Of a stretch of 64,000 bases of DNA, positions 44,488 to 64,000 are shown in pieces. The stretch's first letter is position 1. Each line of letters begins with the position of its first letter. The position numbers were made by a program, and so were the translations under genes. Source of the DNA: Bacillota bacterium (GTDB taxonomy: Bacteria > Bacillota > Desulfitobacteriia > Desulfitobacteriales > JAJXUE01); contig JAJXUE010000007.1 in the NCBI GenBank assembly GCA_021783135.1, positions 15,136 through 79,135 on the forward strand, given 5' to 3'. A model generated the notes under the pieces. The model saw only the letters and a list, made by a program, of their open reading frames with translations. It was not told the origin of the DNA and did no database searches.

Positions 44488-45774
44488 TTGGCTAGCGTAA
44501 AAGTTACGATTACAGGCTTGGGGCACGAAGGAGAAGGGGTTGGCCGTGTAGACGGCAAAGCCACCTTTGTTGCAGGAGCCCTACCTGGTGAAACCGTACT
44601 GACAGAAATCAGACAGCAAAAGAAGAATTTTCAACGCGGCGAGCTACGGGAAGTGCTGGAAGCGGCACCCGAGCGCATAAACCCGCCCTGCCCGGTATTT
44701 GGCCGCTGCGGCGGGTGTCAGGTACAGCAGCTGGAATATCAGGCAACCTTAAATTGGAAACGCCAAAAAGTGCAAGACGCGTTAGTTAGGTTGGGCAAGC
44801 TTGAGCAAGTGGAAGTTAGTCCGGTACTGGGTATGCCAGAGCCATGGCGCTACCGCAACAAGGTTCAACTACATGTCGGGGAGCGCAGCGGAAGCATCCA
44901 GTTGGGGTATTACGGGCATAACACTAACCGCCTGGTGGCCTTTGACGATTGTCTGCTGCTGCCGCAAAGGTTTAATGCTTTAAAGGCTCGGCTGGAGATA
45001 TTTTTCAGGGAAAATGGGGTTAAACCGCAGCAGGTACAGCAGGTCGTCATACGCAATTCACCTGTTACAGGTGAGCTGATGGTGGGGATTATAGGTGTGT
45101 TGCCGCCATTGCCGTGGCAGGAAATTAGGCGCGATTTTCCGGAGCTTAAGTCGTTAGTCGTAGTCGACCCGGTAAGTGGTAAACCAAAGTTGGCGGCCGG
45201 ACAAGCGGTAATTAATGACGTCATTTATGATAATCAATTTGCAATATCCTTCGCGTCTTTTGTGCAGGTAAATCCGGGGCAAACTAAGGCGTTGTATGCC
45301 AAGGTACTGGAGTATGCCAATTTGCAGGGACAAGAAGTGGTATTAGATGCCTATTGTGGGATTGGGACGATTACATTGGCCTTGGCGCAACAGGCCAGGT
45401 GGGTAATTGGCGTAGAGGTGGCCCCAGAGGCAATCGCGGACGCCCGGGCCAATGCCACAGCTAATAAGATTCCAAACGTTGAATTCCACGCGGCGACAGC
45501 GGAGGAACTCTTGCCCCAGCTAGCGGCGCAAAAGCTCAAAGTAGATGTGGTGGTAGTCGATCCGCCGCGCAAAGGGTGCGAGCGGGAGGTGCTCGACGCG
45601 ATAGGCAAACTAGGCCCGAAGCGGCTGGTGTATGTATCATGCGACCCGGCGACCTTGGCGCGGGATTTAGGCGTGATGCAGGAGTTGGGGTATGTGACGG
45701 TAGGGGTGCAGCCGGTGGATATGTTCCCGTGGACGGCGCACGTTGAAACGATAATTCGGATAAATCGTGCTTAA
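44488..45774 (+). CDS. rlmD: 23S rRNA (uracil-C5)-methyltransferase RlmD/RumA family
   Basis: TRAM N-domain, Fe-S Cys cluster (CPVFGRCGGCQ), SAM motif LDAYCGIGT, DPPRKG, and C-terminal DMFPWTAHVE. TTG start. Confidence 0.88.
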   Translation: MASVKVTITGLGHEGEGVGRVDGKATFVAGALPGETVLTEIRQQKKNFQRGELREVLEAAPERINPPCPVFGRCGGCQVQQLEYQATLNWKRQKVQDALVRLGKLEQVEVSPVLGMPEPWRYRNKVQLHVGERSGSIQLGYYGHNTNRLVAFDDCLLLPQRFNALKARLEIFFRENGVKPQQVQQVVIRNSPVTGELMVGIIGVLPPLPWQEIRRDFPELKSLVVVDPVSGKPKLAAGQAVINDVIYDNQFAISFASFVQVNPGQTKALYAKVLEYANLQGQEVVLDAYCGIGTITLALAQQARWVIGVEVAPEAIADARANATANKIPNVEFHAATAEELLPQLAAQKLKVDVVVVDPPRKGCEREVLDAIGKLGPKRLVYVSCDPATLARDLGVMQELGYVTVGVQPVDMFPWTAHVETIIRINRA

Positions 45775-45874
45775 AGCCGCTGATACCAAGGGTTTCAGGC
45801 ACTTTGATTTACGACCTAAAAAAAGAAAAGATCACTGATAAAAAATAGATTCTAAGTTAAATTTGATAAAAATG

Positions 45875-45907
45875 AAGCGGTTTCATTCTAAAAGGATGAA
45901 GCCGCTT
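45875..45907 (+). terminator. Hairpin terminator in the island's left flank (would terminate rumA read-through)
   Basis: 12-bp stem AAGCGGTTTCAT / ATGAAGCCGCTT (one G-U pair) followed by a T-rich tract. The sequence is related to the terminator at 47012-47051. Confidence 0.6.
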
Positions 45908-46204
45908 TATTATTTTCACAGTATTTCCCAGACCTCAAAATGAGAAAAAATAAGGATAGGAGGGTGAAAAACAATGAACCCTGAATGATTTCTTTAATGA
46001 GTCTACATAAAAGCACACATCGCTAGGTCTCACAGTTGGCACAGTATCAGATGACCACTTACCAATATATCTTTAGAAAGTAAAGAAGAAAGGAAAATGA
46101 AAATGGACAATAATGAATTATAAACCGTATATATTGAAAAGCTCAAGGATATCAACACACTCTGCCAAGCAATAGAACGAACTTGCTAATATGGTTATGA
46201 CGAT

Positions 46205-46318
46205 ATGGCAGAACGCCTAGCAGCCAGCGATGCGGGATATGCAAGAGAGCTGATGGCTGTGGTTGAGCAATTCATTCAGGCACAACAATCACAAACGATG
46301 GGAGAATGTAAATGCTGA
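46205..46318 (+). pseudogene. Remnant of an ArdA-like gene 3' end plus the inter-gene junction scar
   Basis: Ends ...QSQTMGEC with DNA CAAACGATGGGAGAATGTAAATGCTGAAAGC. This matches the intact junctions CAAAGGATGGGAGGGATGTAAATGCTGAAAGT (48241-) and ...GATGGGAGGGATGTAAATG (49425-). The following MLKALIAD... start is cut off after about 8 codons. Confidence 0.5.
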
Positions 46319-46372
46319 AAGCTTTGATCGCAGACATGAGTCATAGTTTTCATAAAACGGGAGGACATCGAC

Positions 46373-46624
46373 ATGATGAGTCAATGGAAAATCAACGCAA
46401 TTAAAAAAGACTATCCCCAGGGTACACGAGTAGAGCTTGGGTCCATGGCGGGAGAACAGCAGATGCCGTTAGGTCTTCAAGGTACTGTGGAAATTGTGGA
46501 CGATATCGGGCAAATCCATGTGAAATGGGATAATGGCAGAAACCTGGTATTAGTGCCGGAGGAAGATTCATTCCGCAAATTACCGGATCAGGAACAGGGG
46601 AAGTCTCAACAGATGATCCTATAA
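46373..46624 (+). CDS. DUF4314-like small protein (common in Firmicutes conjugative elements)
   Basis: 83 aa. The pattern YP.GTRVEL..M......P.GL.GTV..VDD.GQIHV.WDNG..L.L is as recalled for DUF4314. Confidence 0.6.
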   Translation: MMSQWKINAIKKDYPQGTRVELGSMAGEQQMPLGLQGTVEIVDDIGQIHVKWDNGRNLVLVPEEDSFRKLPDQEQGKSQQMIL

Positions 46625-46641
46625 TTAAAGGAGGGAAAGCA

Positions 46642-46974: not shown

Positions 46975-47011
46975 ATTTGCAGGGAACTCTTACTTAAAAC
47001 AGTATAGTAGT

Positions 47012-49440: not shown

Positions 49441-49580
49441 ATGAGTAAAATGTTTTCATTGGTAGCACCAAGAATATAGTATGGAACAGCATTTGCTTTC
49501 CAAGATCTTATTTTCTAGGAATGACTTTTCTCTCTCATAGCAAGACCTTTGGCAATCACCGATTGCACTACCGATGAACA

Positions 49581-49985
49581 TCAGCCACCGGCAGGATTTT
49601 TAGTCAGACATTCACACCCTGTATTGGCTCCCGTATGCCTCTTAATATCTTCCAATGTTGAACAGCATTGTGCTTCAGCTACATGATATAAGATCTCCTC
49701 CTCCTTAACATTTGCACAGTAACAAATTGGAATTGGGGGAGGAACGTTTTTAAACCAAATCTTGTTGACCAATTGGTCTTGACTAATGGTCATCTTACTG
49801 TTTTGTGTGTAATAAGCGACTTCACATTCGGGAGTTCTACACAAGAAAAAATGTTCTTCTTCTTCAATTTCAACGCCAGGTTGTACCTGATGTTCAACTG
49901 TTTCCTTACGTACTTTCTGCCCTATCCCATTACAAACAGGGCAATCCGGAATTACTTTTGAATTTGCGGATAGTTCAATAATCAT
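49581..49985 (-). CDS. Cysteine-rich metal-binding protein: N-terminal Zn-ribbon-like CxxC...CxxxC plus C-terminal BFD-like CxC...CxC (CopZ N-terminal-domain-like)
   Basis: CPVCNG...CRTPEC, then ICYCANV...(about 30 aa)...GCEC. The architecture is as recalled for the A. fulgidus CopZ N-domain family. TTG 49991 is an alternative start. Confidence 0.55.
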   Translation of the reverse strand: MIIELSANSKVIPDCPVCNGIGQKVRKETVEHQVQPGVEIEEEEHFFLCRTPECEVAYYTQNSKMTISQDQLVNKIWFKNVPPPIPICYCANVKEEEILYHVAEAQCCSTLEDIKRHTGANTGCECLTKNPAGG

Positions 49986-50061
49986 GAGCAAACACTTCTT
50001 TCACAACAACTTGCGTGTATTTAATTGACCTCCAGTTTTTGTCCTTCGGTTGATAGATCTT

Positions 50062-50091
50062 TTTGAAAAAGACCGGGAAACTATCCCGGCC
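50062..50091 (-). terminator. Intrinsic terminator after the thioredoxin-like gene (minus strand)
   Basis: On the minus strand: GGCCGGGATAGTTTCCCGGTC followed by TTTTT. Confidence 0.55.
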
Positions 50092-50127
50092 CATACAATT
50101 AAAATAAATCGTTCTTGGCGTTTACAT

Positions 50128-50400
50128 TTATTGACCTAGTCCGGCTCTTTTTAGTGTTTCATAGTCAATTCCCCTGTTGCTGCAGCAATCCACTAACTTT
50201 CCGTTGATAGCAACGGCAGGAACCGATTTAACGCCGTACTGCTCGGCCTTTTCAACGCATTCATTAGTATCACACTTTTTGTTTAAGTCGTATACCTTCA
50301 CTTCGCAGTTGGGACAAGCTAGAGTCTTTATTTCTTTTACAGCATTCTCACAGATGTAGCAACCAGCCGTAAAAATTTCAATCAGCCTCTTGTTAGCCAT
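50128..50400 (-). CDS. Thioredoxin-fold small redox protein (MTH895/Thioredoxin_3-like), Cys-rich
   Basis: 90 aa with CYIC and CPNC motifs plus four more Cys residues and the SVPAVAINGK pattern. ATG 50400 lies 6 nt after AAGGAGGTG and overlaps the merR stop. Confidence 0.65.
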   Translation of the reverse strand: MANKRLIEIFTAGCYICENAVKEIKTLACPNCEVKVYDLNKKCDTNECVEKAEQYGVKSVPAVAINGKLVDCCSNRGIDYETLKRAGLGQ

Positions 50401-50809
50401 TTTCCTCACCTCCTTCCGACAACCTTTCTACAATAGGACAACTATGAACAGGCCCTTGGTCGGGACATCTGCTCGATAAATCTTGTAGAACGCTTTTGAT
50501 GCTTTGTAGGTCACGTATTTTGGACTCTATCTCCTTTATCTTTTGTGAGGCAAATAGCCGAACTTCCCGACAACCAGAACTTTCGCTCTCAGTTATACTA
50601 AGAAGTTTTTTAATTACCGAAAGAGTAAACCCTAAATCTTGAGAGCGTTTTATGAACCTAATTCGCTGAATCACTTCAGGTGGAAAGATTCGGTAACCAG
50701 ATTTTGTTCGTGGGGGTTCCGATATCAAGCCTAATCTTTCATAATACCTAATCGTCTCGATATTTACGCCAGCGTTTTTAGCTAATTCGCTAATAGTCAG
50801 TCCATTCAT
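50393..50809 (-). CDS. merR: MerR-family metal-responsive regulator with Hg(II)-type cysteine triad
   Basis: HTH LTISELAKNAGVNIETIRYYERLGLI. Cys80, Cys115 and Cys124 have spacings of 35 and 9, identical to the recalled MerR triads (Tn501 C82/C117/C126; Bacillus C79/C114/C123). Confidence 0.8.
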   Translation of the reverse strand: MNGLTISELAKNAGVNIETIRYYERLGLISEPPRTKSGYRIFPPEVIQRIRFIKRSQDLGFTLSVIKKLLSITESESSGCREVRLFASQKIKEIESKIRDLQSIKSVLQDLSSRCPDQGPVHSCPIVERLSEGGEENG

Positions 50810-50928: not shown

Positions 50929-51239
50929 GAGTTCAAGGCTGCCCTTAAACATGAAGAATGCACAGACCTTGACTGGGCAGCAGACATTTCGCAAAACCTT
51001 GGCTGTTATGACTTTTATTTCTCACTGACATCACCGGAGGAATATGGCGTGCGCACATTACAGGCAGCGGATATATGAATTCCCTTGAACCGGTATTATG
51101 CTGTTTTGACTTTGAGCAGTACGGAAGGGATCAGATAGCAGCCGGGGGTACAGTGACAACAGAATATGGTATGATTGCCCGCAATGAAAAGGAATTTTAC
51201 TTCGACTACTATACCCCGCCGTCTACACGCAGCAATTGA
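50929..51239 (+). pseudogene. 5'-truncated, frameshifted remnant of an ArdA-like gene
   Basis: EFKAALKHEECTDLDWAADISQNLGCYDFYFSLTSPEEYG...* (stop 51076-78), then in another frame ...CCFDFEQYGRDQIAAGGTVTTEYGMIARNEKEFYFDY. This is colinear with the C-terminus of the ORF at 62840 (KYKAALQYEYCTDLDLAIDIAQNLDCYSFYSSLCSPEDYG...FLDFRQYGEAKMKEHGVKFTDYGLICRNEKEFVFEF). Confidence 0.75.
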
Positions 51240-52184: not shown

Positions 52185-52916
52185 GTGATGAATAAGTTGA
52201 AGATACTCAAGAACCGGATATTTTTAAGCGTCCTCTGCATTGTCCTGGCAGGAGCCATTTCTTTTTTGCTCCTGCCGAAGTTTTATGCAGACAAGGGTGC
52301 GACAGTGATGGTGCTTCGGGCTGCGGAGGACATCCCGGCAGGCACAAAGATACAGAGTAAATATCTTGCTATGGTGGAGGTGGGAAAATTCGGTTTGCCC
52401 GATGCCGTCATCAAAGATAAGGTCTTGGCTGAAGGGAAGATCGCGCAGACTGACATTGCGAAGGGGGACTACGTGTTTACCCAAAAGATCGGTGACTTTG
52501 TCGCCGATGAAAAGCTGGACCGTATTGCCAGGGATAATAAACGGCTGGTTACCATCAGTGTGCCAAGCATTGCCGCAGGGCTCTCCTCCCATTTAGAAAG
52601 CGGCGACATTGTGACAGTGGCTGTCTTTTCAAATCAAAAAAAAGAGGGGGACGCAAGTCAAAGCACTCCCGCCCAGGTTATCCTCTACCCTGAACTGAAA
52701 GGACTGGAGGTTTACAGTGTGGAGAATGCCCGCACACAGAGCACCGCCCAGGTCCGAAAGCAGCAAGCGGAAAATCAGCAGTCTTCCAGCGATCCCATCC
52801 CCAAGGCGGTTACCCTGATAGCTACCGAAGCGCAGGCAGCGAAACTCATCGAAGCCGAATACACGGGCAAGCTGCATCTGATCTTTGAAAAAAGGGGGGT
52901 AAGCCATGAGCAGTAA
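52185..52916 (+). CDS. cpaB: Flp pilus assembly protein CpaB-like (SAF domain plus RcpC/CpaB region)
   Basis: N-terminal TM, SAF-like VLRAAEDIPAGTKIQSKYLAMVEV, and ...LVTISV...GD.V.V pattern. The exact start is uncertain. Confidence 0.65.
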   Translation: MMNKLKILKNRIFLSVLCIVLAGAISFLLLPKFYADKGATVMVLRAAEDIPAGTKIQSKYLAMVEVGKFGLPDAVIKDKVLAEGKIAQTDIAKGDYVFTQKIGDFVADEKLDRIARDNKRLVTISVPSIAAGLSSHLESGDIVTVAVFSNQKKEGDASQSTPAQVILYPELKGLEVYSVENARTQSTAQVRKQQAENQQSSSDPIPKAVTLIATEAQAAKLIEAEYTGKLHLIFEKRGVSHEQ

Positions 52917-55034: not shown

Positions 55035-55047
55035 AGGGAGGTTGACT

Positions 55048-55962
55048 ATGAATAGCATCCAGGGTTCCCTTGCCTTTGTCTTTGTCCTGATCAGCCTTGC
55101 CCTTTTCCTCCTGCTGAAGCTTAACCCTTTTGCAGTGGAGAAAAACACTTTGAAACAGCGGCGGTTGTATCTGTCTAGGACAAAGCTGAAAATCAGCGAG
55201 AGAGTGATCCTCCGGTTCACAACCCTGTTCCGGCAAACCAGATACACGCTTAAGAAATTTATCCTGATGGTTGCCGCAGCATTTGTGTCGGGTTTTTTGG
55301 CGGGGGTTTTGCTTTTTAACAACGCTGGCTTAGCAGCGGTTACAGCAGTCTGCCTTATCCCTGCTCCTTACTTTTACCTGACTGTGAAAAGTTCCAGAGC
55401 AGCGAGGGAAGAAATTGAGGGGTTGGAAAATACCATGTCCATCATCACCAACGCCTATGCTGGATGTGACGATATTATCAAGGCGGTGGAAACCTATGTC
55501 GAAGAGAAGAACCGCTATACCCCTGTGGAGTTAATGAAGCCAACACCCTTCGATGAATTTATCTCAGAAATAAAGCTTATAAATCCCAACATAGAACATG
55601 GGCTGTACCGCCTGTCTGCTAAAATCAAAAACCGATACTTTGCCGAGTGGATAAAAATGTTGATTCTCTGCTATCACGACAGGCGGCTGAAATTTGCCCT
55701 GTTTCCCGTGATAAAGTCGATGAATGATGCCAAGGCCATGCAGATTGAAAGTGACAGCATGATGAGCAGGGTATGGCGGGATTATCTGATGACGGTGGGC
55801 ATGATGTTCAGTATTATTCCATTGATGCGTTTTTCAAATGCCGAATGGTTTGCCATTCTGACCGGAACCACCCTAGGAAAATTACTGATTGTCGTCATGC
55901 TCGTAACCGCTCTGGCAACTTCGTTCTTCGTGATGAAGATGACCAGGCCTGCCAACCGATAG
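55048..55962 (+). CDS. tadB: TadB-like type II secretion system F-family membrane protein
   Basis: N-terminal TM, cytoplasmic helical domain and C-terminal TM pair. It is in the canonical position after cpaF. ATG lies 7 nt after GGGAGG. Confidence 0.65.
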   Translation: MNSIQGSLAFVFVLISLALFLLLKLNPFAVEKNTLKQRRLYLSRTKLKISERVILRFTTLFRQTRYTLKKFILMVAAAFVSGFLAGVLLFNNAGLAAVTAVCLIPAPYFYLTVKSSRAAREEIEGLENTMSIITNAYAGCDDIIKAVETYVEEKNRYTPVELMKPTPFDEFISEIKLINPNIEHGLYRLSAKIKNRYFAEWIKMLILCYHDRRLKFALFPVIKSMNDAKAMQIESDSMMSRVWRDYLMTVGMMFSIIPLMRFSNAEWFAILTGTTLGKLLIVVMLVTALATSFFVMKMTRPANR

Positions 55963-56001
55963 AAAACTCAACCAAAATCAATTTTTCAGGGAGGTTTAAT
56001 T

Positions 56002-56907
56002 TTGTTCTATCAAATCATCGTCTTTGTCCTGCTGACTGCGGCAGGATTTTTAATTTGCAGGCAAATACTCAAAATACCCAAGCTGAGCATGAAAAAAAAC
56101 ATCAAAAACTTACAGGTAGAAAAAGAAAAAACGGGAGCAAGGTTGCTCAACCTTTTTGTGATGCCCCTTGTAAAGCCGGTATCCCGATTGATCAGAATTG
56201 AACCGGAGAAAGAAGCAAAAATGGCGTCAATGCTAAGACGTGGAGGACTTGCGCTAACACCAAAGGAATATCATGCACGTGCTCTCATCTGTGCTGCTTT
56301 CACCCTGCCGCTCTTGATTCTGCTTTTGGCAATCGGAGCAACAAACATTGCTCCTGCAATTCTTATCTTTTCGGTGGTAGTATATTTCCACTTCATGACC
56401 GACCTCAAAGACAAGCTGAAAGAGAAAAAGGAATTAATCGAAATAGAACTTCCAAGTTTTGTTCGCTCCATCCTCTATAAGCTTGAAGATGTGCGGGGCG
56501 GCAACGAAAATACGGTTGTCCAGGTGGACCTGATCCAGATATTTGAGGACTATCTAAAGGTAGCGAGTGAGGTTTTCTACTATGACATTGCGGTTCTGAT
56601 CATGGAGATGAAAGCCAAGGACATAGAAACAGCGCTTCGAAACTTCAGTGAGCGTGTCGGACTTCTTGAGGTATCCTTTTTGGTCAATGCCCTTATCGGC
56701 CTATACCGCGGAGAACATCAGGGCGAGGCTCTAATGTATCTTGCCAAGGATATGGACATCAAGGCGAAGGAAGCCCTGCGCAAAAATCTGGGCAAGCTGC
56801 CCGGCAAAATAAAAATGGCATCCATACCCCTTGTGGTAGTGACCCTGGCAAGCCTTTTATATGTTATAGGCTCCCATTTAGTCCGATCCATGGGGGGCCT
56901 TTTTTGA
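56002..56907 (+). CDS. tadC: TadC-like type II secretion system F-family membrane protein
   Basis: Same architecture as the preceding gene (a second T2SS-F paralog). TTG start 7 nt after GGGAGG. Confidence 0.65.
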   Translation: MFYQIIVFVLLTAAGFLICRQILKIPKLSMKKNIKNLQVEKEKTGARLLNLFVMPLVKPVSRLIRIEPEKEAKMASMLRRGGLALTPKEYHARALICAAFTLPLLILLLAIGATNIAPAILIFSVVVYFHFMTDLKDKLKEKKELIEIELPSFVRSILYKLEDVRGGNENTVVQVDLIQIFEDYLKVASEVFYYDIAVLIMEMKAKDIETALRNFSERVGLLEVSFLVNALIGLYRGEHQGEALMYLAKDMDIKAKEALRKNLGKLPGKIKMASIPLVVVTLASLLYVIGSHLVRSMGGLF

Positions 56908-56962
56908 TGTGAAAACGGGGCAACCCTTTTCAAATAAAACTATATTATTCAGGAGGTAAAGC

Positions 56963-57214
56963 ATGAAAAACGGAACAAACACAATCCAAATCACGGAGGA
57001 AAGGAGGTCAAACCCCATGAGAAACAAAATGGCAAACGCCTTTTCAAAGGCAAGAGGACTTATGGTTAACAAGTCCGGTGACCAGATGACAGGCTGGCTC
57101 ATTGTCGTACTGATCGTAGTGGTAGTGGGTGCAGTATTCATGACCCTGTATCAGGGTTCCATTACGCAAATCTGGAACAGTATTGTCACCAAGATTACAA
57201 GTCTTTTGGGCTAA
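56963..57214 (+). CDS. Flp-like type IVc pilin candidate 1
   Basis: Basic leader ending ...NKSG, then DQMTGW and a 20-aa hydrophobic helix. The mature part would be about 44 aa. ATG 57017 is an alternative start and aligns better with paralog 2. Confidence 0.55.
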   Translation: MKNGTNTIQITEERRSNPMRNKMANAFSKARGLMVNKSGDQMTGWLIVVLIVVVVGAVFMTLYQGSITQIWNSIVTKITSLLG

Positions 57215-57240
57215 ATAACGGCAAACTGTAAAATTACCCA

Positions 57241-57279
57241 CAAAGGTAAAAAGGAGAAACTTTCTCCCTTTTACCTTTG
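57241..57279 (+). other. Long hairpin after pilin gene 1 (attenuator or 3' stabiliser)
   Basis: 19-bp stem CAAAGGTAAAAAGGAGAAA / TTTCTCCCTTTTACCTTTG with one mismatch and a 1-nt loop. No canonical U-tract follows. Confidence 0.55.
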
Positions 57280-57377
57280 ATGAAATGTTTTGCAACTGAT
57301 ATTACGGGCCTCAACTCTGGTAAAACCTTAAAAAATCAAACTGAAATCAAAAAATAACTATACGGAGGCATTTTTCT

Positions 57378-57587
57378 ATGATGAGAACTTTGAGAAACAA
57401 AATGGCGATGGCAGGCTTAAAGGCTAGGAAAGTATTGACCAATCAATCCGGCGATCAGATGACAGGCTGGCTGATCGTTGTACTGATCGTAGTCGTCGTC
57501 GGTGCGGTATTTATGACGCTTTACCAGGGTTCTATTACGCAGATTTGGAACAGTATTGTAACCAAAATCACCGGCCTTTTGAGCTAA
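57378..57587 (+). CDS. Flp-like type IVc pilin candidate 2 (paralog of 56963-57214)
   Basis: SGDQMTGWLIVVLIVVVVGAVFMTLYQGSITQIWNSIVTKIT is identical to paralog 1 over 42 aa. The leader differs. It has its own SD (ACGGAGG). Confidence 0.55.
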   Translation: MMRTLRNKMAMAGLKARKVLTNQSGDQMTGWLIVVLIVVVVGAVFMTLYQGSITQIWNSIVTKITGLLS

Positions 57588-57637
57588 ACTATTCGGCGGC
57601 TGCGAAACAACACCGCCAGAACAGGGGGTGTAAAGGG

Positions 57638-58126
57638 ATGAACAGGCAGTGCCGGAGCTTATGGGGGAGATGTTCTCCCCCTTTTTCTTTGAAAAAGGTG
57701 TTGGTTAATCGAAAAGGTAGTGCCTATTATGAACTGATTATCAAAACCTTGGTGGTCATTACACTGATGGCGACGGTGATGTCCTTCTTAAGCATCTTCA
57801 CCACCTATCTGAGTCTTAACCAGGTCTGCCGCCGGGTGGTCCGGGTCATTGAGCTGGAGGGACAGGTATCGGACAATGCATATGATGTTTTTTATCGGCT
57901 CAAGGAACAAACCGGGCTGTCTCCTGAAATGAGCATCGGGGATGTCAATTATTGTGATGAACAAAACCAAAAAATTCAGCTAAGAGATACTTTTACAGTA
58001 AAGATGAAATACAACTATGCCTTTACGGTGTTTCGGCCTTCCTCCTCTCCACCGGTGCAAATCATCATACCCATGGAGGTGCGCATCACGGGCATGTCGG
58101 AAAAATATTGGAAGCTTTTAGAGTGA
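57638..58126 (+). CDS. TadE-like minor pilin / pseudopilin candidate (DUF4320-like)
   Basis: ...NRKG/SAYYELIIKTLVVITLMATVM has Gly, then Glu at +5, then a hydrophobic helix, which is a class III signal-peptide-like site. The start is uncertain (ORF open from 57545). Confidence 0.5.
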   Translation: MNRQCRSLWGRCSPPFSLKKVLVNRKGSAYYELIIKTLVVITLMATVMSFLSIFTTYLSLNQVCRRVVRVIELEGQVSDNAYDVFYRLKEQTGLSPEMSIGDVNYCDEQNQKIQLRDTFTVKMKYNYAFTVFRPSSSPPVQIIIPMEVRITGMSEKYWKLLE

Positions 58127-58152
58127 AAGCGCCGGAAGGGAGGGATAATTTT

Positions 58153-58638
58153 GTGGGCAAAACCGGACCCATTTTAAAAAGCAAAAAAGGCGATGGGCTG
58201 GTGTTTATCTTGATCCTCATCTTTTTTATTATGACCCTTGCAGCCATCGTCATTGAATATTTCCGCATGGACAGCCTGTACCAGCAGGTGGAATATGTGC
58301 TCCAGCGGGGAGTGAATTCCTCCGTGGAGTACGCCATGCTGGACGAATACCGCAAAGACGGCTATGCCCGGATGGACAGCGCCCTTGCGGAAGAACAGCT
58401 CTACGGCTATCTTCATGAAAGCATGCAGCTGGACCGAGATCTGAACAAGTATTCCGGGGAGCAATGGGTGTACACCCTTGAAATCCAGAGCCTCACCGCA
58501 ACCGATGATCCGCCCCGGCTCATCTTGAAAGGGCAGTTGAGAACCCGGAGCGTTTTTAGTTTCCTGACTGGCGAGGTGCGGCTGCCCTTTACTCTCTCCA
58601 GCAGCAACAACAGAATTGATGAAGGAGGTTCCCCATGA
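58153..58638 (+). CDS. TadE/TadG-like minor pilin candidate
   Basis: ...KSKKGDGLVFILILIFFIMTLAAIVIEYF N-terminal hydrophobic helix. GTG 58153 lies 8 nt after GGGAGGG. Its 3' end overlaps the next gene (ATGA). Confidence 0.45.
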   Translation: MGKTGPILKSKKGDGLVFILILIFFIMTLAAIVIEYFRMDSLYQQVEYVLQRGVNSSVEYAMLDEYRKDGYARMDSALAEEQLYGYLHESMQLDRDLNKYSGEQWVYTLEIQSLTATDDPPRLILKGQLRTRSVFSFLTGEVRLPFTLSSSNNRIDEGGSP

Positions 58639-61600
58639 AGCAAAAAGTAATTATTGCTATACCCTTGGCGTTTTTATGCTGTCTGCTATTTTCAACGCAA
58701 GTCTTTGCCCTGTCCGGCAGCGACATTACGCTGAAAATACGCTCTCCCGTAAACAGCCTGACCAGTGAAAGCGGTGTGATCGCGGTGGAGCAGTTTCCGG
58801 CAGAAATTGCCATCAGCGTTGCGGCAAAGGCGGGCAATTTGGCAGGAATACAATTAAGCCATAACGGTCAGACCCTGGAGATTCCGGCGGACCACATTCT
58901 GACCATTGCGAATAAAGAAGCCTGCGGGGTGTATACCCTGACAGCGAAAACAGATGGGGGCGCAGTCCTCACCATAAGCACAAATGTAGTATTCCAGGTA
59001 AAAGCCACATACAATATCCGCTACCGCACGGTAGGGATGAATTTGAAGGAAGCCTATGATGGAGCAGACAAGCTAAAGACCTTCCCCACACCCCAGCGCA
59101 TTGACCTGGTGCAGGCCAACACCATCGCCGGATACGAGCAGAAACGCTTTGCCGGGCTGATCGGCAGGAGCGACGGCAGGACCTACACGTTGAAGGGCAG
59201 TCTGGTGGTGGAGGTTTACGACTATTCCACCGGGAAGGTCATCGGGACCTATGATGCAAATCAGGATTTTGATGCCCTGACTAAAGGTTTTCATTGGACC
59301 ACCAAGAGCCTCATGGCCTTTGAAACCATGCGGAACACGGCAATCACCTATCAAGCCCCTGTGAAAATTGACGTCCAGGCTACATGGTGCAGTGAAGACA
59401 AGCAGGAGGTGTACGGCAAAGCTACGGCACAGGACAGGGGTGTGCCGGAATACCTCTATCCCTACCAGACTACCAGCGTCACCTTCTCAAAGGATGATAT
59501 CCCCCTATCGCGCAACTATATCTATAGAGGTCTGGAATGGGATTACAAACCGGAAACTGCCGGATACACCGATGGGGAAAGTCAGACCCAAACGGTAATT
59601 ACTCAGAAAATCAATTATATGATTCCAGTAGCGAATTTTTACTTCAAGTTTAAAAAACAGGATGGCAACGACCTTTCCGTGAGCATCCACGCCCCTGAAA
59701 CCGTCTACCGAGGGGATAGCTATTCTTTCGAGGAGGTTTTTACCAACCATGGCGCAGCACCTGCCTATGATGTGCCCTTGATCGGCACCGTAGACCGGGA
59801 GCAGATGAAAGAAATCCCTGCCAAGCAGGATTTCTCGCCTAACGAAAGCAAAACCTTCACCCTCACACGGAATACTGACAAAGCAGGGGCAGTCATAACG
59901 TTGTGGGCGCAGATCGAAGTGCCCGAGGGATTTATGGATAAGAACCCGGAGAACAATACCGCGACATCGGTCATCCGGGTGGTGGAAAAACCGGAGCCGA
60001 CCCCAAGCCAGGGGAAGAACCCCGAACCGGACAAAGAAAATCCGCCACCGGCGGAAAATCCCGACCCGGAAAAGCTGTGTGATGAATCGGCAAGCATTGC
60101 AGCGCCGCCCACCGTTTACGAAGGGGAGACTTATCGCTTTACGGTGAGCTTTACCAACCATTCCGACAGGATGCTGAAGGATGCAGGGGTACAGGGGAAA
60201 AACAATGAGGTCGTTTTAGACTCAATTCCCAAAGCGCTTGACTTCAATCCCCTGGAAACCAAGACCTATACCCGCACCGGACAGGCGGGGCATGTGGGTG
60301 AGGTATATAACCTGTGGGCGAATATCGGAGTGCCCGAGGGCTTCCAGGATGAAAATCCGGTCGATAACACCGCGGCTTCCAAAATTACTGTTGTGGCAAA
60401 ACCCTCGGGCAATCCGCCCAGAAACTCGGATAATCCACCCAACAATCCGGATAATCCGCCGAAAAACCTGGACAATCCACCTAAAAATCCGGATAATCCG
60501 CCGAAAAACCCGGACAATCCACCTAAAAATCCGGATAATCCACCGACAAACCCAGACAATCCACCTGAAAATCCGAATAACCCGCCAACGAATCCGGTTC
60601 CCCCCCATGATCCCGGACATCCGCCCGTCGACCCGGTGGTGCCGCAGGAGAAGCTGTGCGATGTATGGGTGAACCTGTCCTACCCGCCCACGGTCTATGA
60701 GCAGGAGGAATATAGCTTTACTGTGTACTTCGGCAATGACACGGATAAAGCGCTGTCAGGGGTAAGCTTAAACGCTTCCATTGACGGTAAGGCAGTTTCA
60801 GCCGTACCGACTGCGGCAGATTTCCAAGCCCATGAAACTAAAGCCTTCCTTGTCAAAGGCAAGGCAGGAGAAAAAGGCACAACCATCCGACTGTCGGCCC
60901 AGGTGTCGCCACCTGCAGAGTACAGGGATACCAACACAAGCAACAACCGAGCTGAGGCAGAGCTTTCTGTAGTGGAGCGTCCCTATGACTTGGATGTGCA
61001 GCGGATCACGCCCGACTGGTACAAGGAGAATCAGACGGTCATCAGCACCATCAAGGTGTCAAACCGGGGAAGCCTGGACTTTACGCCTGGACAGAAGGTT
61101 TCAGTCCAGTTTGAAGTCCCGGAGCTTTTACTTAAAAAACGTATTGATGCTATCGTCATGGAAAAGGATACATGGAACGTCGTATCGGTCAAATGGGATA
61201 CCCCCAACGTGCAGGCCGATAAAAACATCACCCTGATTGCGGTCATCAATCCCGACCAAGTCCTGGACAATGAAACATCCAACGCCAACAACACCTATAC
61301 CCAAAAGGCCATCATCAAAAATGTAACCTATGATGAGCCGGAAGAGAATACAACCATTCCTGCACCACCGCCAAGAAGTGAGCAGCCCAGGGTGACCTGG
61401 AAGGAGCAGCAATATGAAAACGACCGGTTTGTTTGGAAAGACTTCTACGCCGAGCTAAAAGTAGATGCCGTCCTTGACTATGAAACAAAGGCAAAAGGCT
61501 ATATCAAATCGGGATATGGTTTTTCCATCAATGTTACGACCTCTGTGAATACCAACTATGATAAGTCGGAGCTGATTACTGCGCCGCAGACTGCCGAGGT

Positions 61601-61874
61601 CTATCTGCCCCAGTACCGCTATGAAACAGCCATACCACTAATGAAGGAGGGCGACCATTTTACATTCAAAGAAAATCTCACTTCACCCTTTCGATACAAG
61701 AAGCAATATGTCCCGGTATGGTTCCCCGATGACAGGGACTATATCGTGCAGCTCCTTGTCACCGATGTGCACACTCCCGGAGGTACCCTATCTAAATGGA
61801 TCACCGGAGGAAATCTGAAAATGAAGGTGGTTGACAGCATGTACTCCGATGATGTCACCACGGGAAGTCCATGA
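58635..61874 (+). CDS. Secreted 1079-aa CARDB-repeat protein with Pro/Asn-rich heptad stalk (candidate pilus-associated adhesin)
   Basis: Signal peptide MKQKVIIAIPLAFLCCLLFSTQVFA. Four CARDB-like modules of about 110 aa each end in E/D-N-x-x-N-N (about 59672-59995, 60074-60410, 60652-60985, 60985-61320). There is a (D-N-P-P-x-N-P)n linker and no LPXTG motif. Confidence 0.7.
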   Translation: MKQKVIIAIPLAFLCCLLFSTQVFALSGSDITLKIRSPVNSLTSESGVIAVEQFPAEIAISVAAKAGNLAGIQLSHNGQTLEIPADHILTIANKEACGVYTLTAKTDGGAVLTISTNVVFQVKATYNIRYRTVGMNLKEAYDGADKLKTFPTPQRIDLVQANTIAGYEQKRFAGLIGRSDGRTYTLKGSLVVEVYDYSTGKVIGTYDANQDFDALTKGFHWTTKSLMAFETMRNTAITYQAPVKIDVQATWCSEDKQEVYGKATAQDRGVPEYLYPYQTTSVTFSKDDIPLSRNYIYRGLEWDYKPETAGYTDGESQTQTVITQKINYMIPVANFYFKFKKQDGNDLSVSIHAPETVYRGDSYSFEEVFTNHGAAPAYDVPLIGTVDREQMKEIPAKQDFSPNESKTFTLTRNTDKAGAVITLWAQIEVPEGFMDKNPENNTATSVIRVVEKPEPTPSQGKNPEPDKENPPPAENPDPEKLCDESASIAAPPTVYEGETYRFTVSFTNHSDRMLKDAGVQGKNNEVVLDSIPKALDFNPLETKTYTRTGQAGHVGEVYNLWANIGVPEGFQDENPVDNTAASKITVVAKPSGNPPRNSDNPPNNPDNPPKNLDNPPKNPDNPPKNPDNPPKNPDNPPTNPDNPPENPNNPPTNPVPPHDPGHPPVDPVVPQEKLCDVWVNLSYPPTVYEQEEYSFTVYFGNDTDKALSGVSLNASIDGKAVSAVPTAADFQAHETKAFLVKGKAGEKGTTIRLSAQVSPPAEYRDTNTSNNRAEAELSVVERPYDLDVQRITPDWYKENQTVISTIKVSNRGSLDFTPGQKVSVQFEVPELLLKKRIDAIVMEKDTWNVVSVKWDTPNVQADKNITLIAVINPDQVLDNETSNANNTYTQKAIIKNVTYDEPEENTTIPAPPPRSEQPRVTWKEQQYENDRFVWKDFYAELKVDAVLDYETKAKGYIKSGYGFSINVTTSVNTNYDKSELITAPQTAEVYLPQYRYETAIPLMKEGDHFTFKENLTSPFRYKKQYVPVWFPDDRDYIVQLLVTDVHTPGGTLSKWITGGNLKMKVVDSMYSDDVTTGSP
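60408..60596 (+). repeat. In-frame 21-nt tandem repeat, 9 units, encoding (D/G/N)NPPxN(P/L/S)
   Basis: Units were read directly. The pair of units at 60450-60491 is repeated at 60492-60533 with 41/42 identity. Confidence 0.9.
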
Positions 61875-62284
61875 TGCTGCTGCTTTACGCCATCCCGATG
61901 GTCTGTGCTGCCATCACGGATTGGAAAAAACGGATTATTCCCGATTGGACATGGATTGCCATTCTTATGGTGGGATTTGCTTCTGCGGTCATCAATGGTA
62001 AAGGAATCTTATATATTCCCCTGCTTGAAAGATTTACGGGACTTTTGTTCCCGGCAGTCTGCCTTCTTATGATTGCTTTCAAATGGGGCGGTGTTGGTGG
62101 AGGAGATATTAAGCTGATGGCAGCCTTAGGCTTTTGTTTCGGGCTTTACGGACTTGTAGCCATCCTCTTTTTTGCTGTCATCCCTGCCTGCATTTATGCC
62201 AGAGCGACAAAGCAAAGGAGCGTGCCTTTGGCCGTATTTTTGTGCATCGGTTTCTTTGTATATGCCGGTCTTTTACTTTCATAG
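61871..62284 (+). CDS. A24-family prepilin peptidase (TadV/CpaA-like)
   Basis: 137-aa polytopic protein with two Asp motifs (AITDWKKRIIPD; GGGDIKLMAALG). ATGA overlap with the upstream gene. Confidence 0.75.
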   Translation: MMLLLYAIPMVCAAITDWKKRIIPDWTWIAILMVGFASAVINGKGILYIPLLERFTGLLFPAVCLLMIAFKWGGVGGGDIKLMAALGFCFGLYGLVAILFFAVIPACIYARATKQRSVPLAVFLCIGFFVYAGLLLS

Positions 62285-62351
62285 AGGGGATATTTTTTGA
62301 AAGTATTATTGGTGCTGCAGATTTGCAGCCCTTTATAGGGAGGAATATTGT

Positions 62352-62783
62352 GTGATACATTTTCACGATGAAGTCCACCGGCAGAAGGTCGTAAACTGCT
62401 TGCAAAAGGAAAACAGGATTTATCCCGATGGCAGGGCTGACAGCTATTACCTGCCTGCCCTGTATCTGCTTCTCTCTACAAAAAACGATCTGTATAAAAA
62501 GACCAGCAGGTATATCGACAGGGATGGCATCGACTTTGAAAAAATGCTATCCAAACAGGACTTTCCCAGCAGTGAAAGAAAGCTTATCAAACTGGCGGCC
62601 AATCTTTTCAACGACTCTATGGAGGTTTCCCCTTCGGAGTTGATCGACACGCTGGATGAGGAAAACTTTACTCTGGCTATGCAGGCCATTTTTCTCAAAC
62701 GCACCAGTTGCCACGTTCAGGAGCTGCTTCCTGCTGCAAAGGAAGTTCCTGAACTGGAGCCACAGTATGAGCTGAAGATGTAG
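62352..62783 (+). CDS. DUF6075-like protein (conjugative-element associated)
   Basis: 143 aa. The pattern ...F...EH......L.......D.YY.PALYLL... ...R.LIKLAANLFN is as recalled for DUF6075. GTG start after GGGAGG. Confidence 0.45.
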   Translation: MIHFHDEVHRQKVVNCLQKENRIYPDGRADSYYLPALYLLLSTKNDLYKKTSRYIDRDGIDFEKMLSKQDFPSSERKLIKLAANLFNDSMEVSPSELIDTLDEENFTLAMQAIFLKRTSCHVQELLPAAKEVPELEPQYELKM

Positions 62784-62839
62784 ATGGATTGACCTCCACG
62801 CTGCAGATAAACAAATTCTCATAGATGGGAGGATTGAAA

Positions 62840-64000
62840 TTGAATGAAATAAAAATAACGGTTTTAAGAGATGATCTCTGCGATAACTCCAGCTATATCG
62901 GTGCACACCTCTGTCTACCTGCAACGAATGCCGAAATACAGGATGCCCTTGAAAAAGCAAGGATCGATGATGAGCATCCAGATTTTATGGTAGTGGATTA
63001 TGCGTGTGGGCAGGATTACTTAAACGAGCTTCTGCCGAAGAAGGCTTCGCTTTATGAGCTTGACTACCTCGCAAGGCGGCTGGCCAGTATGGATGATTTT
63101 GAAAAAGTAGCTTTTGAGGGAGTAGTAAAAATGGAGGGAGCGCCTGACCTTGTTAAGCTCATCAACCTCACCTACAACCTCGCCGATTGTAATGTAGCCT
63201 TTGCAGTGTACAATGACAAGCAGCTCGGCAAATTTTATGTCGACAATGAGTTCATAACGGAGCTGGAGAAAGTGCCTGAAAAAGTGCTGCAATACCTCGA
63301 CTATGAAAAGGTGGGACGTATCCACAGAGAGGCAGAAAAGGGTGTGTTCACGAAAACCGGTTATGTAGTGCAATCAGAGCCGGATATAAAGGTTGTCTAT
63401 GACAGCACCAACATTCCCAAGCCCGATGACGATAGCGGATATGTTTTCAAGCTGTATCTTATAGAAGGATGTTTTGAACCGGAAAAAGCAAAAGGGGTTT
63501 GGCTGAAGCTTCCTGCATCGGAGGCAGAAATCGTGTCGGCCCTGGCGGAGATCGGGGTGGCTTCTTTATTTGATTGCGTTTTTACCCACTGCGAAAGCAG
63601 CATGCCCTGCTTCGAGGATGTGTTCTCTGAAAGTGAGGACATAGAAATGCTGAATATCTTAAGCAATGCTATTTCAAAAATCATAGATAGCAATATGGGC
63701 ACTAAGTACAAAGCTGCCCTTCAATATGAATACTGCACCGATCTGGACTTGGCCATTGACATTGCACAAAACCTGGACTGCTACAGCTTTTATTCCTCTC
63801 TTTGCTCACCAGAGGACTATGGACGGCAGGCACTGCTCAAAGCATCCGGGCTCCCGCCCGATGATATAGCCTTTAAGTTTCTTGATTTCAGACAGTACGG
63901 TGAAGCAAAAATGAAGGAGCATGGGGTGAAATTCACAGATTACGGATTGATTTGCCGCAACGAGAAAGAGTTTGTGTTCGAATTTTGTACCAGACCGCAA
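62840..64000 (+). CDS. ArdA-like anti-restriction protein, at least two modules, 3' end outside the window (absent from the ORF track because no stop is reached)
   Basis: Frame is open from TTG 62840 (7 nt after GGGAGG) to nt 64000. Module ends are LQYLDYEKVGRIHREAEKGVFTKTGYVV and FKFLDFRQYGEAKMKEHGVKFTDYGLIC. Confidence 0.65.
   Translation, partial: MNEIKITVLRDDLCDNSSYIGAHLCLPATNAEIQDALEKARIDDEHPDFMVVDYACGQDYLNELLPKKASLYELDYLARRLASMDDFEKVAFEGVVKMEGAPDLVKLINLTYNLADCNVAFAVYNDKQLGKFYVDNEFITELEKVPEKVLQYLDYEKVGRIHREAEKGVFTKTGYVVQSEPDIKVVYDSTNIPKPDDDSGYVFKLYLIEGCFEPEKAKGVWLKLPASEAEIVSALAEIGVASLFDCVFTHCESSMPCFEDVFSESEDIEMLNILSNAISKIIDSNMGTKYKAALQYEYCTDLDLAIDIAQNLDCYSFYSSLCSPEDYGRQALLKASGLPPDDIAFKFLDFRQYGEAKMKEHGVKFTDYGLICRNEKEFVFEFCTRPQ

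Follow-up and report, generated by a model that had tools for sequence, protein, structure and literature searches.

A probable integrative and conjugative element with two Tad/Flp-type pilus loci at the 3′ end of rumA in an uncultured Bacillota bacterium

We analysed a 64,000-nt stretch of contig JAJXUE010000007.1 from an uncultured Bacillota MAG (hereafter the window), in which the end of rumA/rlmD separates two kinds of DNA. On the backbone side lie the his operon, the fructose-bisphosphate aldolase gene, pcrA, ligA and gatCAB, together with leuA/leuB-like genes, transporters and a chemoreceptor. On the island side the genes encode DUF4314, ArdA (four times), a Tad-like pilus locus and DUF6075 (Table 1). 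This Pfam gene content agrees with an earlier sequence-only reading of the locus, in which housekeeping genes give way to element-associated ones at this point; that reading was also correct in finding the 18.2 kb in view to be free of genes for an integrase, relaxase, coupling protein or VirB4.

Table 1. Features of the rumA junction and of the island within the window
Feature	Position	Strand	Basis or remark
rumA/rlmD, 428 aa	44488..45774	+	Pfam TRAM + tRNA_U5-meth_tr; host/element chimera
Junction zone (attL core), GCACGTTGAAACGATAAT	45738..45755	.	L208/L211 identity start, L216 divergence
Left arm of element (P'), ATAATTCGGATAAATCGTGCTTAAAGCCGC..AAGGGTTTCAGGCACTTT	45751..45800	+	alignment with L018
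Hairpin then U-rich run	45871..45911	+	fold: -27.2 kcal/mol, z = -8.4
DUF4314 protein, 83 aa	46373..46624	+	Pfam 5.5e-27; first gene of element
Hypothetical protein, 110 aa	46642..46974	+	no Pfam match; always adjoins DUF4314
ArdA-like protein 1, 390 aa	47089..48261	+	Pfam ArdA 2.4e-17
ArdA-like protein 2, 392 aa	48262..49440	+	Pfam ArdA 1.4e-16, DUF6329 2.3e-8
Cargo: CopZ-type zinc-binding/BFD protein, thioredoxin-like, MerR regulator	49581..50809	-	Pfam
C-terminal fragment of another ArdA paralogue	51075..51239	+	blastp to ArdA4
ArdA-like protein 3, 288 aa	51305..52171	+	Pfam ArdA 1.3e-17
Tad/Flp-type pilus locus 1	52185..62284	+	Pfam, including precomputed; paralogy with locus 2
DUF6075 protein, 143 aa	62352..62783	+	precomputed Pfam, weak; same position in Dehalobacter
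ArdA-like protein 4, 394 aa	62840..64000, cut by window end	+	translation; L001 gene call Pfam ArdA

Composition changes at the same place. Every 4-kb interval left of 46 kb lay at a tetranucleotide distance of 0.13–0.19 from the backbone profile and every interval to the right at 0.28–0.38, a doubling at 46 kb, while GC fell from 0.499 to 0.461, in keeping with the claim that the island is AT-richer and patchy. Two other claims of that reading did not hold. Third positions, described as GC-rich on the backbone side, showed no significant drop on the island side (GC3 0.54 vs 0.52, Mann-Whitney p = 0.44); the island is only more variable (sd 0.08 right vs 0.04 left of the boundary), with its minimum of 0.33 in the MerR/CopZ cargo. 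Nor was intergenic space longer in the island overall (coding fraction 0.89 vs 0.90).

Other contigs locate the boundary more finely. Conspecific contig L216 matches the window with 1 mismatch in 11,953 nt ending at 45,746. Beyond that point it carries a different element, the first difference falling at 45,747 and all similarity ceasing at 45,756. Contig L208 shows the reverse pattern, unrelated DNA left of 45,738 and complete identity to the window right of it, and the identity of L211 to the window likewise begins at 45,738. These breakpoints therefore place the junction within 45,738–45,755. In one Logan sample a contig ending at 45,767 and a contig starting at 45,738 overlap by 30 nt, which we read as a k-1 graph branch. 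The earlier reading had set the boundary at the 3′ end of rumA/rlmD, starting at 45,745. Composition confirms a boundary there, and L216 and L208 place it within a few bases of that coordinate, which falls on the first base of the GA in the HVE glutamate codon. Streptococcal work (PMC4120198) makes this GA (45,745–45,746) the likely point of crossover. The 4 nt that follow are AACG here and GTGC in L018, a related element at the same codon, and may be of host or element origin.

Assemblies from NCBI, ENA and Logan together yielded 12 contigs with the same rumA–element join. None of the conspecific contigs shows an empty site, each being occupied by one or the other element, and all 12 contigs with the exact RumA carry the island, as would be the case if the region were ancestral, vertically inherited chromosome of odd composition with no insertion at all. 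We regard that explanation as very improbable: the strain represented by L216, with a 99.98% identical backbone, has a different element starting from the same codon, and proteins of the element are 78–99% identical in Dehalobacter, Desulfosporosinus, Faecalispora, Lacrimispora and others, against 58–60% for the best RumA in reference genomes among the matches listed.

Host DNA in rumA extends to about 45,746, and the last 7–8 codons, (T)IIRINRA, with the stop codon come from the element. This tail lies within the DNA common to L208 and is conserved in L018, and the rumA of conspecific L216 ends differently (TIIMMTNCGQNKK). We compared rumA tails across 80 Bacillota rumA loci. The left arm is conserved across the stop codon in L018, whose distant Bacillota host has a RumA with only 47% protein identity to the one here and in which rumA is followed by genes for a STAND NTPase, ArdA, a D12 methyltransferase and a MazE-like protein. 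The insertion falls in the conserved ...PWTxHVE codons within the bracket given above, and three independent comparisons (L216, L208 and L018) show both the integration of a mobile element at the rumA 3′ end and, as the earlier reading had suggested might be so, its supply of the last ~7 codons. Further into the element DNA, a hairpin matched in stability by 0 of 200 shuffles, and missed by a simple terminator scan, is likely to serve as an intrinsic terminator for rumA. Since the element arm replaces the last codons and brings a stop codon and this predicted terminator, rumA stays open and intact.

The visible island has four ArdA-like genes and a fragment of another. Three of the proteins score 64.4, 61.9 and 65.3 bits for the ArdA domain, where the Pfam gathering cut-off is 27; the fourth has a precomputed Pfam ArdA match, and the fragment matches ArdA4 with 49% identity over 39 aa (E 1e-10, blastp). 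All four paralogues are predicted anti-restriction proteins. The cargo in their midst has the lowest GC3 of the island (0.33–0.45) and is where variants of the element part: L208 diverges after 49,562, and contigs L207, L209 and L002 end there. The backbone common to related elements begins at ArdA 4, and the element is colinear with L216 from that gene on.

Tad/Flp-type locus 1 encodes, in order, CpaB/RcpC, a ParA/TadZ-like protein, the CpaF ATPase, two TadB/C-like membrane proteins, two Flp-like pilins (56963–57214 and 57378–57587), DUF4320, a 176-aa protein, a 1079-aa DUF8194/8195 surface protein and an A24 prepilin peptidase. Pfam matches include T2SSE (2e-27), RcpC with SAF (2.6e-17) and Peptidase_A24 (5.7e-17). 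The two membrane proteins and the two pilin candidates (69–83 aa) had no Pfam match; these putative TadB/C and pilin calls were made from position, from paralogy with locus 2 and from a 'secretion protein F' annotation in plasmid pTPHSE1. The motif of the pilin candidates is SG/DQMTGW, compared with the canonical G/xxxxEY. Judged by ORF sizes alone, the 1079-aa protein and its neighbours gave a first impression of prophage tail components. We attach a negligible probability to a prophage here, as Pfam gives a Tad pilus and ArdA with no portal, capsid or terminase, and VirB4, a relaxase and a coupling protein follow.

These last genes lie beyond the window. We walked rightwards along the source contig and an identical metagenome contig (L001, L098, L104 and L111), the sequence past the source contig being taken from another assembly of the same population; L111 and the source contig are 100% identical over 11.8 kb. 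The composite is 55,267 nt long. Past the window it encodes a D12 orphan methyltransferase, Tad locus 2, VirB6/TrbL, VirB4, an M23 hydrolase, an RHH protein, a MobL relaxase, a primase-like DUF3991-Toprim protein, a VirD4 coupling protein and an HTH_36 protein, in that order, with the stretch from VirB6 to VirD4 lying 28–52 kb from rumA. Homology to related elements stops at L111 position 17,380, about 120 bp past HTH_36, giving a conserved ICE backbone of 52.2 kb.

All of the conjugation genes are intact ORFs. The VirB4 ATPase (610 aa) has DUF87/AAA_10/P-loop_TraG domains, the coupling protein (597 aa) has T4SS-DNA_transf, TrwB_AAD_bind and TraG-D_C domains, and the mating-pore genes encode a TrbL_5 (VirB6-like) protein and the Peptidase_M23 hydrolase. 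The relaxase (934 aa) has a precomputed Pfam MobL domain and Sel1 repeats; cluster mates of the small protein encoded upstream of it are annotated RHH/CopG, and PLSDB has no close plasmid relative. The sequence-only reading had left the class of the element to be settled by extension to the right, and since VirB6/TrbL, VirB4, the MobL relaxase and VirD4 were reached there, the class is ICE, not IME. Its expectation of both recombination and conjugation genes further right was answered in part: the conjugation genes are present, but within 55 kb a recombinase appears only as a 36-codon remnant.

This remnant is frameshifted and corresponds to the final 36 codons of a gene for a large serine recombinase. 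No intact recombinase was found within 55 kb of rumA, a tblastn search with seven serine recombinases giving no relevant hit at E below 1. As far as L111 position 20,408 we likewise found neither a second junction nor a displaced rumA tail, nor any sequence resembling a right arm. Relatives of the element, found via their coupling proteins (74–81% identical), have one to three large serine recombinases downstream of the coupling gene: in L189 there are three in a row (524, 283 and 521 aa; Resolvase, Recombinase and Zn_ribbon_recom domains), and L197 and L138 also have large serine recombinases. The integrating enzyme is thus most likely of this type, judging from relatives and the literature; as this copy has no intact recombinase, the description 'serine-recombinase ICE' rests on those family members and published elements.

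It is possible, if rather unlikely, that the same ICE is now locked in, its recombinase gene deleted to a 3′ stub and excision lost; the island would then be fixed, or would move only when the recombinases of adjacent elements act on it in trans. The remnant lies about 650 bp past the coupling gene, where L138 has an intact recombinase, no other recombinase occurs in the 55 kb, and homology to the relatives ends so soon after HTH_36. On the other hand, the conjugation genes are all intact, no right-end arm follows the remnant, and the low GC of the DNA past it (0.34–0.42) persists. In L189 and L197, moreover, 6–9 kb of cargo separates HTH_36 from the recombinases, so the true recombinase may lie past the 3 kb visible here.

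The junction in L208 bears on activity. If it were the attP of an excised circular copy, the element would be active, about 88 kb long, and would have GAPS4 and TIR defence genes at its right end. L208 matches the element at every position from 45,738 to about 49,562. The 60 nt left of its junction share 80% identity with the right end of a Pelotomaculum element that is inserted in rumA (L065), which makes that flank a genuine element right arm. A graph branch occurs at the same point in a second sample, and circular forms of the rumA island have been shown in Dehalobacter (PMC11578063). We nevertheless find the circle doubtful. A permutation of the same element should show its exact proteins, and the absence of the 87.9-kb contig from the three long contigs with exact CpaF-2, HEPN or RHH proteins therefore counts against it. 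No recombinase adjoins the L208 right arm, which is of the L065/L052 type, and the left arms of L065 and L052 are unlike that of this element. More likely than a circle is tandem accretion, in which a second element separates the ICE from rumA in some members of the population; this has parallels in L065, where two serine-recombinase elements stand in tandem, and in streptococci (PMC4120198).

Taken together, it is very likely that 45,747–64,000 of the window is the left 18 kb of an ICE of at least 52 kb inserted at the 3′ end of rumA. The element would have entered by site-specific recombination in the Ala-His-Val-Glu codons, its left arm swapping in the last 7–8 rumA codons, the stop codon and the terminator. 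The visible part would comprise establishment and anti-restriction genes (DUF4314 and the four ArdA), a small MerR/thioredoxin/CopZ-like metal/redox cargo and Tad locus 1, and the recombinase would lie further right or have been lost, leaving the remnant. The ICE belongs to a family that occurs across Clostridia, and at this hotspot it is probably part of a larger composite island made up of several units, as in Dehalobacter.

Of all parts of the element, the conserved pair of Tad loci has been described least. Loci 1 and 2 are colinear paralogues with 24–37% amino acid identity, and both are conserved in Dehalobacter. In this element, as in L096 and Dehalobacter, locus 2 is followed immediately by DUF3852, TrbL and VirB4. 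Terrisporobacter pTPHSE1, an unrelated plasmid encoding a MobP2 relaxase and a pLS20-like transmembrane protein, has a homologous module at the head of its conjugation operon, directly before the VirD4 gene; this module comprises DUF6133 pilin-like genes, A24 peptidase, CpaB, CpaF, a TadC-like protein and DUF4320. The position of locus 2, the conservation in Dehalobacter and the pTPHSE1 module support a proposal that we make tentatively, at somewhat short of even chances: that the two diverged loci are transfer machinery, not cargo, of a very widespread Gram-positive conjugative element family. If so, a type IV-filament pilus would make or stabilise donor–recipient contact for a monoderm T4SS.

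Conjugation-assisting type IV pili are known from the IncI (R64) thin pilus and from PAPI-1 (reviewed in PMC12857230). A December 2025 review of T4SS diversity has T4P-assisted conjugation for the Gram-negative IncI and PAPI-1 only, and 'Tad' is absent from its main text. Like R64 and PAPI-1, this element encodes a type IV-filament machine, here a predicted one, beside VirB4 and VirD4. The R64 and PAPI-1 pili, however, are type IVb and diderm, whereas the machine here is Tad/Flp-like (CpaF, CpaB, A24 peptidase, small pilins), monoderm and present in two diverged copies.

The insertion is real, but rumA is a known hotspot, so the finding is of a known kind. The hotspot at the rumA 3′ end named in the sequence-only reading is documented (PMC4120198, PMC11578063). 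Published rumA elements have a GA target in the Glu codon, occur in tandem and have a serine recombinase at the right end; among them, vanG elements and ICE-r sit in rumA of Streptococcus agalactiae, S. anginosus and Roseburia intestinalis (PMC4120198). PMC4701971 and PMC5357655 describe rumA-specific ICEs and IMEs of streptococci. Among 63 other Bacillota rumA loci, six had a second copy of their own rumA tail 1–6 kb downstream, and junctions with a displaced rumA 3′ fragment are present in L065, L052, L072 and L041. Our element shares with vanG elements and ICE-r the same conserved Glu codon, and with the streptococcal and Roseburia elements the supply of a substitute rumA 3′ end, the occurrence of tandem occupation and, in its relatives, serine recombinases towards the right end. 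It differs in its host, an uncultured Bacillota MAG with Dehalobacter-like elements, and in having no intact recombinase seen in this copy; as described, the streptococcal elements are also set apart from it by its MobL relaxase, two Tad-type pilus loci and four ArdA paralogues. In Dehalobacter a nested recombinase island of 100–400 kb lies between rdhB and the rumA 3′ end (PMC11578063), the same insertion site as far as that whole region goes. Dehalobacter sp. DCA has the same layout (end of Tad locus 1, DUF6075, ArdA, D12 methyltransferase, Tad locus 2, TrbL, VirB4, MobL, VirD4), and clustering at 90% identity groups its CpaF-2 with that of our element. PMC11578063 handles the Dehalobacter region as a whole, and this ICE and its pilus loci are neither delimited nor described there.

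The chromosomal side of the junction at rumA was read from L216, a contig from a MAG of the same species (GCA_027325285.1), which differs from the window by 1 mismatch over the 11,953 nt that end at 45,746. Beyond that point its first difference falls at 45,747, followed by eight common bases (ACGATAAT) and, from 45,756, by unrelated sequence; its RumA (433 aa) ends in TIIMMTNCGQNKK where that of the window has TIIRINRA, and a different element lies 3' of the gene. L208, an 87.9-kb metagenome contig that shares the left end of the element, matches the window at 100% identity between 45,738 and ~49,562 and has other DNA leftward. In L018, a distant Bacillota MAG, a RumA of 47% identity is followed by genes for a STAND NTPase, ArdA, DUF1281_C, a D12 methyltransferase and a MazE-like protein; there the DNA just after the codons for the conserved C-terminal residues HVE, ATAATTCrGATAAAwCGTGCTkAAAGCCGC..AAGGnTTTCnGGCAnTTT, is conserved across the stop codon, whereas the preceding coding DNA has diverged. 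Together these three comparisons place the junction within GCACGTTGAAACGATAAT (window 45,738–45,755). Two contigs from one Logan sample, one ending at 45,767 and the other starting at 45,738, overlap by 30 bases, which we interpret as a k-1 branch of the assembly graph. The start coordinate of the sequence-only reading, 45,745, held up: it is the GA of the RumA Glu codon (45,745–45,746), inside the bracket, and GA is the target dinucleotide of rumA-inserted elements in five species (PMC4120198). A dyad around the core, TTTATC...GATAAA, was considered and dropped; an ungapped inverted-repeat test gave 10/30 matches, the chance level, with L208, the window attL and the Pelotomaculum locus L065.

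Among 80 Bacillota rumA genes, conservation of the RumA C-terminus runs through HVE and gives way to variable tails of 6–15 residues. The suggestion that the last ~7 codons might be supplied by the element was borne out by the L216, L208 and L018 comparisons, in which the last 7–8 codons and the stop are element DNA. That DNA also carries a strong predicted hairpin terminator (-27.2 kcal/mol, z = -8.4). The insertion point, and the supply of RumA tail and terminator by the element, are direct observations. The border between chromosome and mobile element is now fixed to within a few bases, which is mainly of annotation value; the rumA 3' end is element-derived, and an uncultured Bacillota lineage is added to the hosts using the rumA hotspot.

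The proposed backbone-to-island transition just after rumA was confirmed by composition and by gene content. Measured in 4-kb windows against the profile of the left 45.8 kb, tetranucleotide distance is 0.13–0.19 throughout the left side, 0.21 in the window straddling the junction and 0.28–0.38 throughout the right side, while GC falls from 0.499 to 0.461. Genes on the left include the his operon, class I aldolase, PcrA, LigA, GatCAB, LeuA/LeuB-like enzymes, transporters and a chemoreceptor. Two other differences that had been described did not survive measurement: GC3 shows no significant decrease on the right (0.54 vs 0.52, p = 0.44), although its variability is 2x greater, and intergenic regions are not longer, the coding fraction being equal (0.89 vs 0.90). 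A non-coding repeat was noted in the backbone, built of blocks of 116 nt (88% identity) and 59 nt (92% identity) whose relative order differs between the two copies; it has no Rfam match, and no Rfam family was found in the whole window.

Features of the element, its surroundings and related contigs, listed in order for the element
Feature	Position	Strand	Context
Backbone repeat, two copies	window 27338–27535; 40110–40377		left of rumA
Predicted terminator	window 45,871–45,911		element DNA
DUF4314, 110-aa protein			first genes right of rumA
ArdA-like 1 and 2	window 47089–48261; 48262–49440		after 110-aa protein
CopZ-type zinc-binding/BFD protein, thioredoxin-like protein, MerR	window 49562–50809	minus	between ArdA 2 and ArdA fragment
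C-terminal fragment of a fifth ArdA	window 51075–51239		right of MerR trio
ArdA-like 3	window 51305–52171		after ArdA fragment
Tad/Flp-like pilus locus 1 (11 genes)	window 52185–62284		
1079-aa protein	window 58635–61874		in Tad locus 1
DUF6075			right of Tad locus 1
ArdA-like 4	window 62840–64000		runs off window
D12 methyltransferase, MazE/AbrB-like protein, YodL, two SpoVG-like proteins, DUF6133			with ArdA 4, first genes beyond window
Tad-like locus 2: RcpC, 271-aa protein, CpaF, two membrane proteins, DUF4320, DUF6550, 576-aa DUF8193-8195 protein			beyond window
DUF3852, TrbL_5 (VirB6-like), DUF7768, HEPN, Fic			after Tad locus 2
610-aa VirB4-like ATPase, M23 peptidase, DUF6329+DUF3846 protein, DUF6103			after Fic
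Protein with weak HipA_C match		minus	after DUF6103
Small protein (cluster mates annotated RHH/CopG), 934-aa MobL relaxase			after HipA_C-like protein
DUF3991-Toprim protein, 597-aa VirD4-type coupling protein, HTH_36 protein			after MobL relaxase
Putative recombinase remnant	L111 17540–17667		~290 bp after HTH_36
Tad-like modules outside the window, locus 2 included	L098 7720–17061; L221 2356–8992; L220		
Related element in conspecific MAG	L216 11997–20690 (GCA_027325285.1)		same rumA codon as window
Low-GC DNA joined to left end	L208 1–5365 (ENA ERZ27236847 k141_348583)		
Two tandem elements	L065 (Pelotomaculum terephthalicicum JT) 11374–17000		after rumA

The four ArdA-like paralogues share only 23–34% pairwise identity; several are ~2x as long as the ArdA domain, and a DUF6329 domain is present in one. 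GC3 of the island is lowest (0.33) in the MerR, thioredoxin-like and CopZ-zinc-finger/BFD genes; around them otherwise identical copies of the element begin to diverge, and several assemblies break there. In Tad locus 1, the 1079-aa protein begins with a signal peptide-like segment and contains three similar modules of ~150 residues and a run of NPPxNPDNPPK repeats; with weak DUF8194/8195 matches, it may be a pilus-associated surface protein.

Conjugation genes were expected right of the window, and a contig walk found them, namely VirB6-like, VirB4-like, MobL relaxase and VirD4-type coupling protein genes. The walk followed the source contig (L001, L098, L104) and then the metagenome contig L111, which is 100% identical to it over an 11.8-kb overlap. 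From the junction to the end of homology with relatives (L111 position 17,380) the backbone of the element measures 52.2 kb. The set of conjugation genes is complete, and the element is an ICE, neither an IME nor a prophage; a prophage reading was dropped after a Pfam profile search. The mobile-element reading of the right side is supported, with the recombinase as exception.

No recombinase gene lies in the 55 kb walked to the right of rumA. The HTH_36 gene is the end of the conserved backbone, and the frameshifted stretch that follows (LDKFDGELFRRLIEKVKV/KSMVEAVFVFKTGVEVREIIS) aligns with the 36 final codons of an annotated recombinase (533 aa) of a Clostridium butyricum plasmid; this one tblastn match (E 1e-3) suggests a remnant of the 3' end of a large serine recombinase gene. 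Pfam gave no match to the repaired remnant. On contigs with relatives of the coupling protein, recombinases lie downstream of it: a serine recombinase triplet (524, 283 and 521 aa) at ~6 kb in L189, and a large serine recombinase at ~9 kb in L197 and at ~0.65 kb in L138. The genes after the remnant encode a ChrB_N-like regulator, an MFS transporter and a metallophosphoesterase. Homologues in two other MAGs have ordinary chromosomal surroundings, yet gene order is not preserved and GC is low (0.34–0.42), so these genes may be either host flank or element cargo. Neither a displaced rumA fragment nor a second copy of the left arm was found in L111 by blastn-short and mismatch scans, and no right-arm-like sequence was found along the walked DNA. 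One candidate, the 100 nt after the remnant taken as an L208/L065-type right arm with a decayed HVE tail, was rejected at an alignment score of 20 against a shuffle mean of 19.9.

The rumA 3' end had been called a documented integration hotspot, and the literature agrees (PMC4120198, PMC11578063). Elements vanG and ICE-r occupy rumA in tandem, with serine recombinases at their right ends (PMC4120198), and in Dehalobacter a nested recombinase island of 100–400 kb, for which a circular form was detected, ends at the rumA 3' end (PMC11578063). Insertion at rumA is already known, the nearest cultured carriers of the window element included. In P. terephthalicicum (L065), rumA is followed by genes for a 415-aa serine recombinase, a D12 methyltransferase and an AAA_15 ATPase, then by arm sequence and a near-copy of its own rumA tail, then by genes for a 418-aa serine recombinase and Bro-N. 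This arrangement represents two small serine-recombinase elements in tandem, each headed by its 415–418 aa recombinase, with the rumA-tail-repeating junction between them. Paenibacillus sepulcri (L052) has the same arm type, and in 6 of 63 other Bacillota rumA loci their own rumA tail is present again within 1–6 kb (small inserts).

These arms bear on the DNA joined to the left end of the element in L208 exactly at window 45738, which has GC ~0.3 and encodes a 1027-aa protein, an SLFN/TIR protein, NA37 and two GAPS4 proteins. At 80% identity, the 60 nt to the left of the L208 junction match the L065 right end, 4.1 kb downstream of rumA, so L208 joins a true element right end to the left end of the window ICE. 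Such a join could be the attP of an excised circle, the flank then being the right end of the circular form, or the product of accretion, with a second element lying between the ICE and rumA in some of the population; we consider accretion the more likely.

At L072 and L041, whose rumA tails fit I(I/L)MT.(C/S)G...K, the duplicate downstream begins ~30 nt earlier, at the VDMFPW codons, which points to a second family of rumA-targeting elements whose crossover point differs. Many reference-genome contigs among L016–L095 (e.g. L017, L026, L029, L061) stop a few hundred bases past rumA, a pattern that repeated mobile DNA at the site would cause.

Relatives of the element are widespread. CpaF of Tad locus 2 has >4,400 homologues at E < 1e-30, the best 120 of which share no less than 64% identity, most of them 77% or more, with hosts in Dehalobacter, Desulfosporosinus, Faecalispora, Marasmitruncus, Anaerotaenia, Lacrimispora and Caproicibacterium. 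Metagenome contigs yielded hundreds of coupling-protein relatives, with identities of 74–81% for the best 80 and many from human gut; no close relative of the relaxase was found among PLSDB plasmids. Across many Clostridia, element proteins are 74–99% identical, and Dehalobacter sp. DCA has the same element layout, the end of Tad locus 1 included. Because the common backbone in L216 and L018 begins at the ArdA adjoining the methyltransferase, the 17 kb filling most of the element DNA in the window (DUF4314 to DUF6075, with Tad locus 1) is a left-hand extension present in some members only. The different but related element of L216 encodes 170-aa and 108-aa proteins, a 401-aa ArdA, a D12 methyltransferase, a MazE-like protein and a 1537-aa protein, and has neither DUF4314 nor Tad locus 1. 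Strain-to-strain replacement at the rumA site is thus observed: the site turns over within one species, because conspecific strains carry different elements at the same codon.

In the mechanism that we envisage, a large serine recombinase would integrate the element at the GA of the Glu codon, and the MobL relaxase would start single-stranded DNA transfer. VirD4 would pass the strand to a VirB4/VirB6/M23 channel, and the ArdA paralogues and orphan D12 methyltransferase may shield the incoming DNA from restriction.

The element family, a more useful lead than the boundary itself, carries one or two conserved pilus loci of Tad type within its conjugation region. Tad loci 1 and 2 are colinear paralogues of only 24–37% amino-acid identity, so the pair is not a recent duplication. 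Both diverged loci are kept in Dehalobacter sp. DCA, and locus 2 lies directly upstream of the T4SS genes in the window element, in L096 and in Dehalobacter. Our literature searches turned up no account of Tad loci in ICEs of Gram-positive bacteria, and likewise nothing specific under the DUF names. A role as conjugation pili is a lead, not a result; if true, it would give Gram-positive bacteria a counterpart of the IncI thin pilus. T4P-assisted conjugation is described only for IncI plasmids and PAPI-1 in a recent T4SS review (PMC12857230). The unrelated Terrisporobacter plasmid pTPHSE1 resembles the window ICE in carrying a homologous Tad module directly before VirD4, but its backbone is a different one, the operon including a pLS20_p028-like protein, a C40 peptidase and a MobP2 relaxase.
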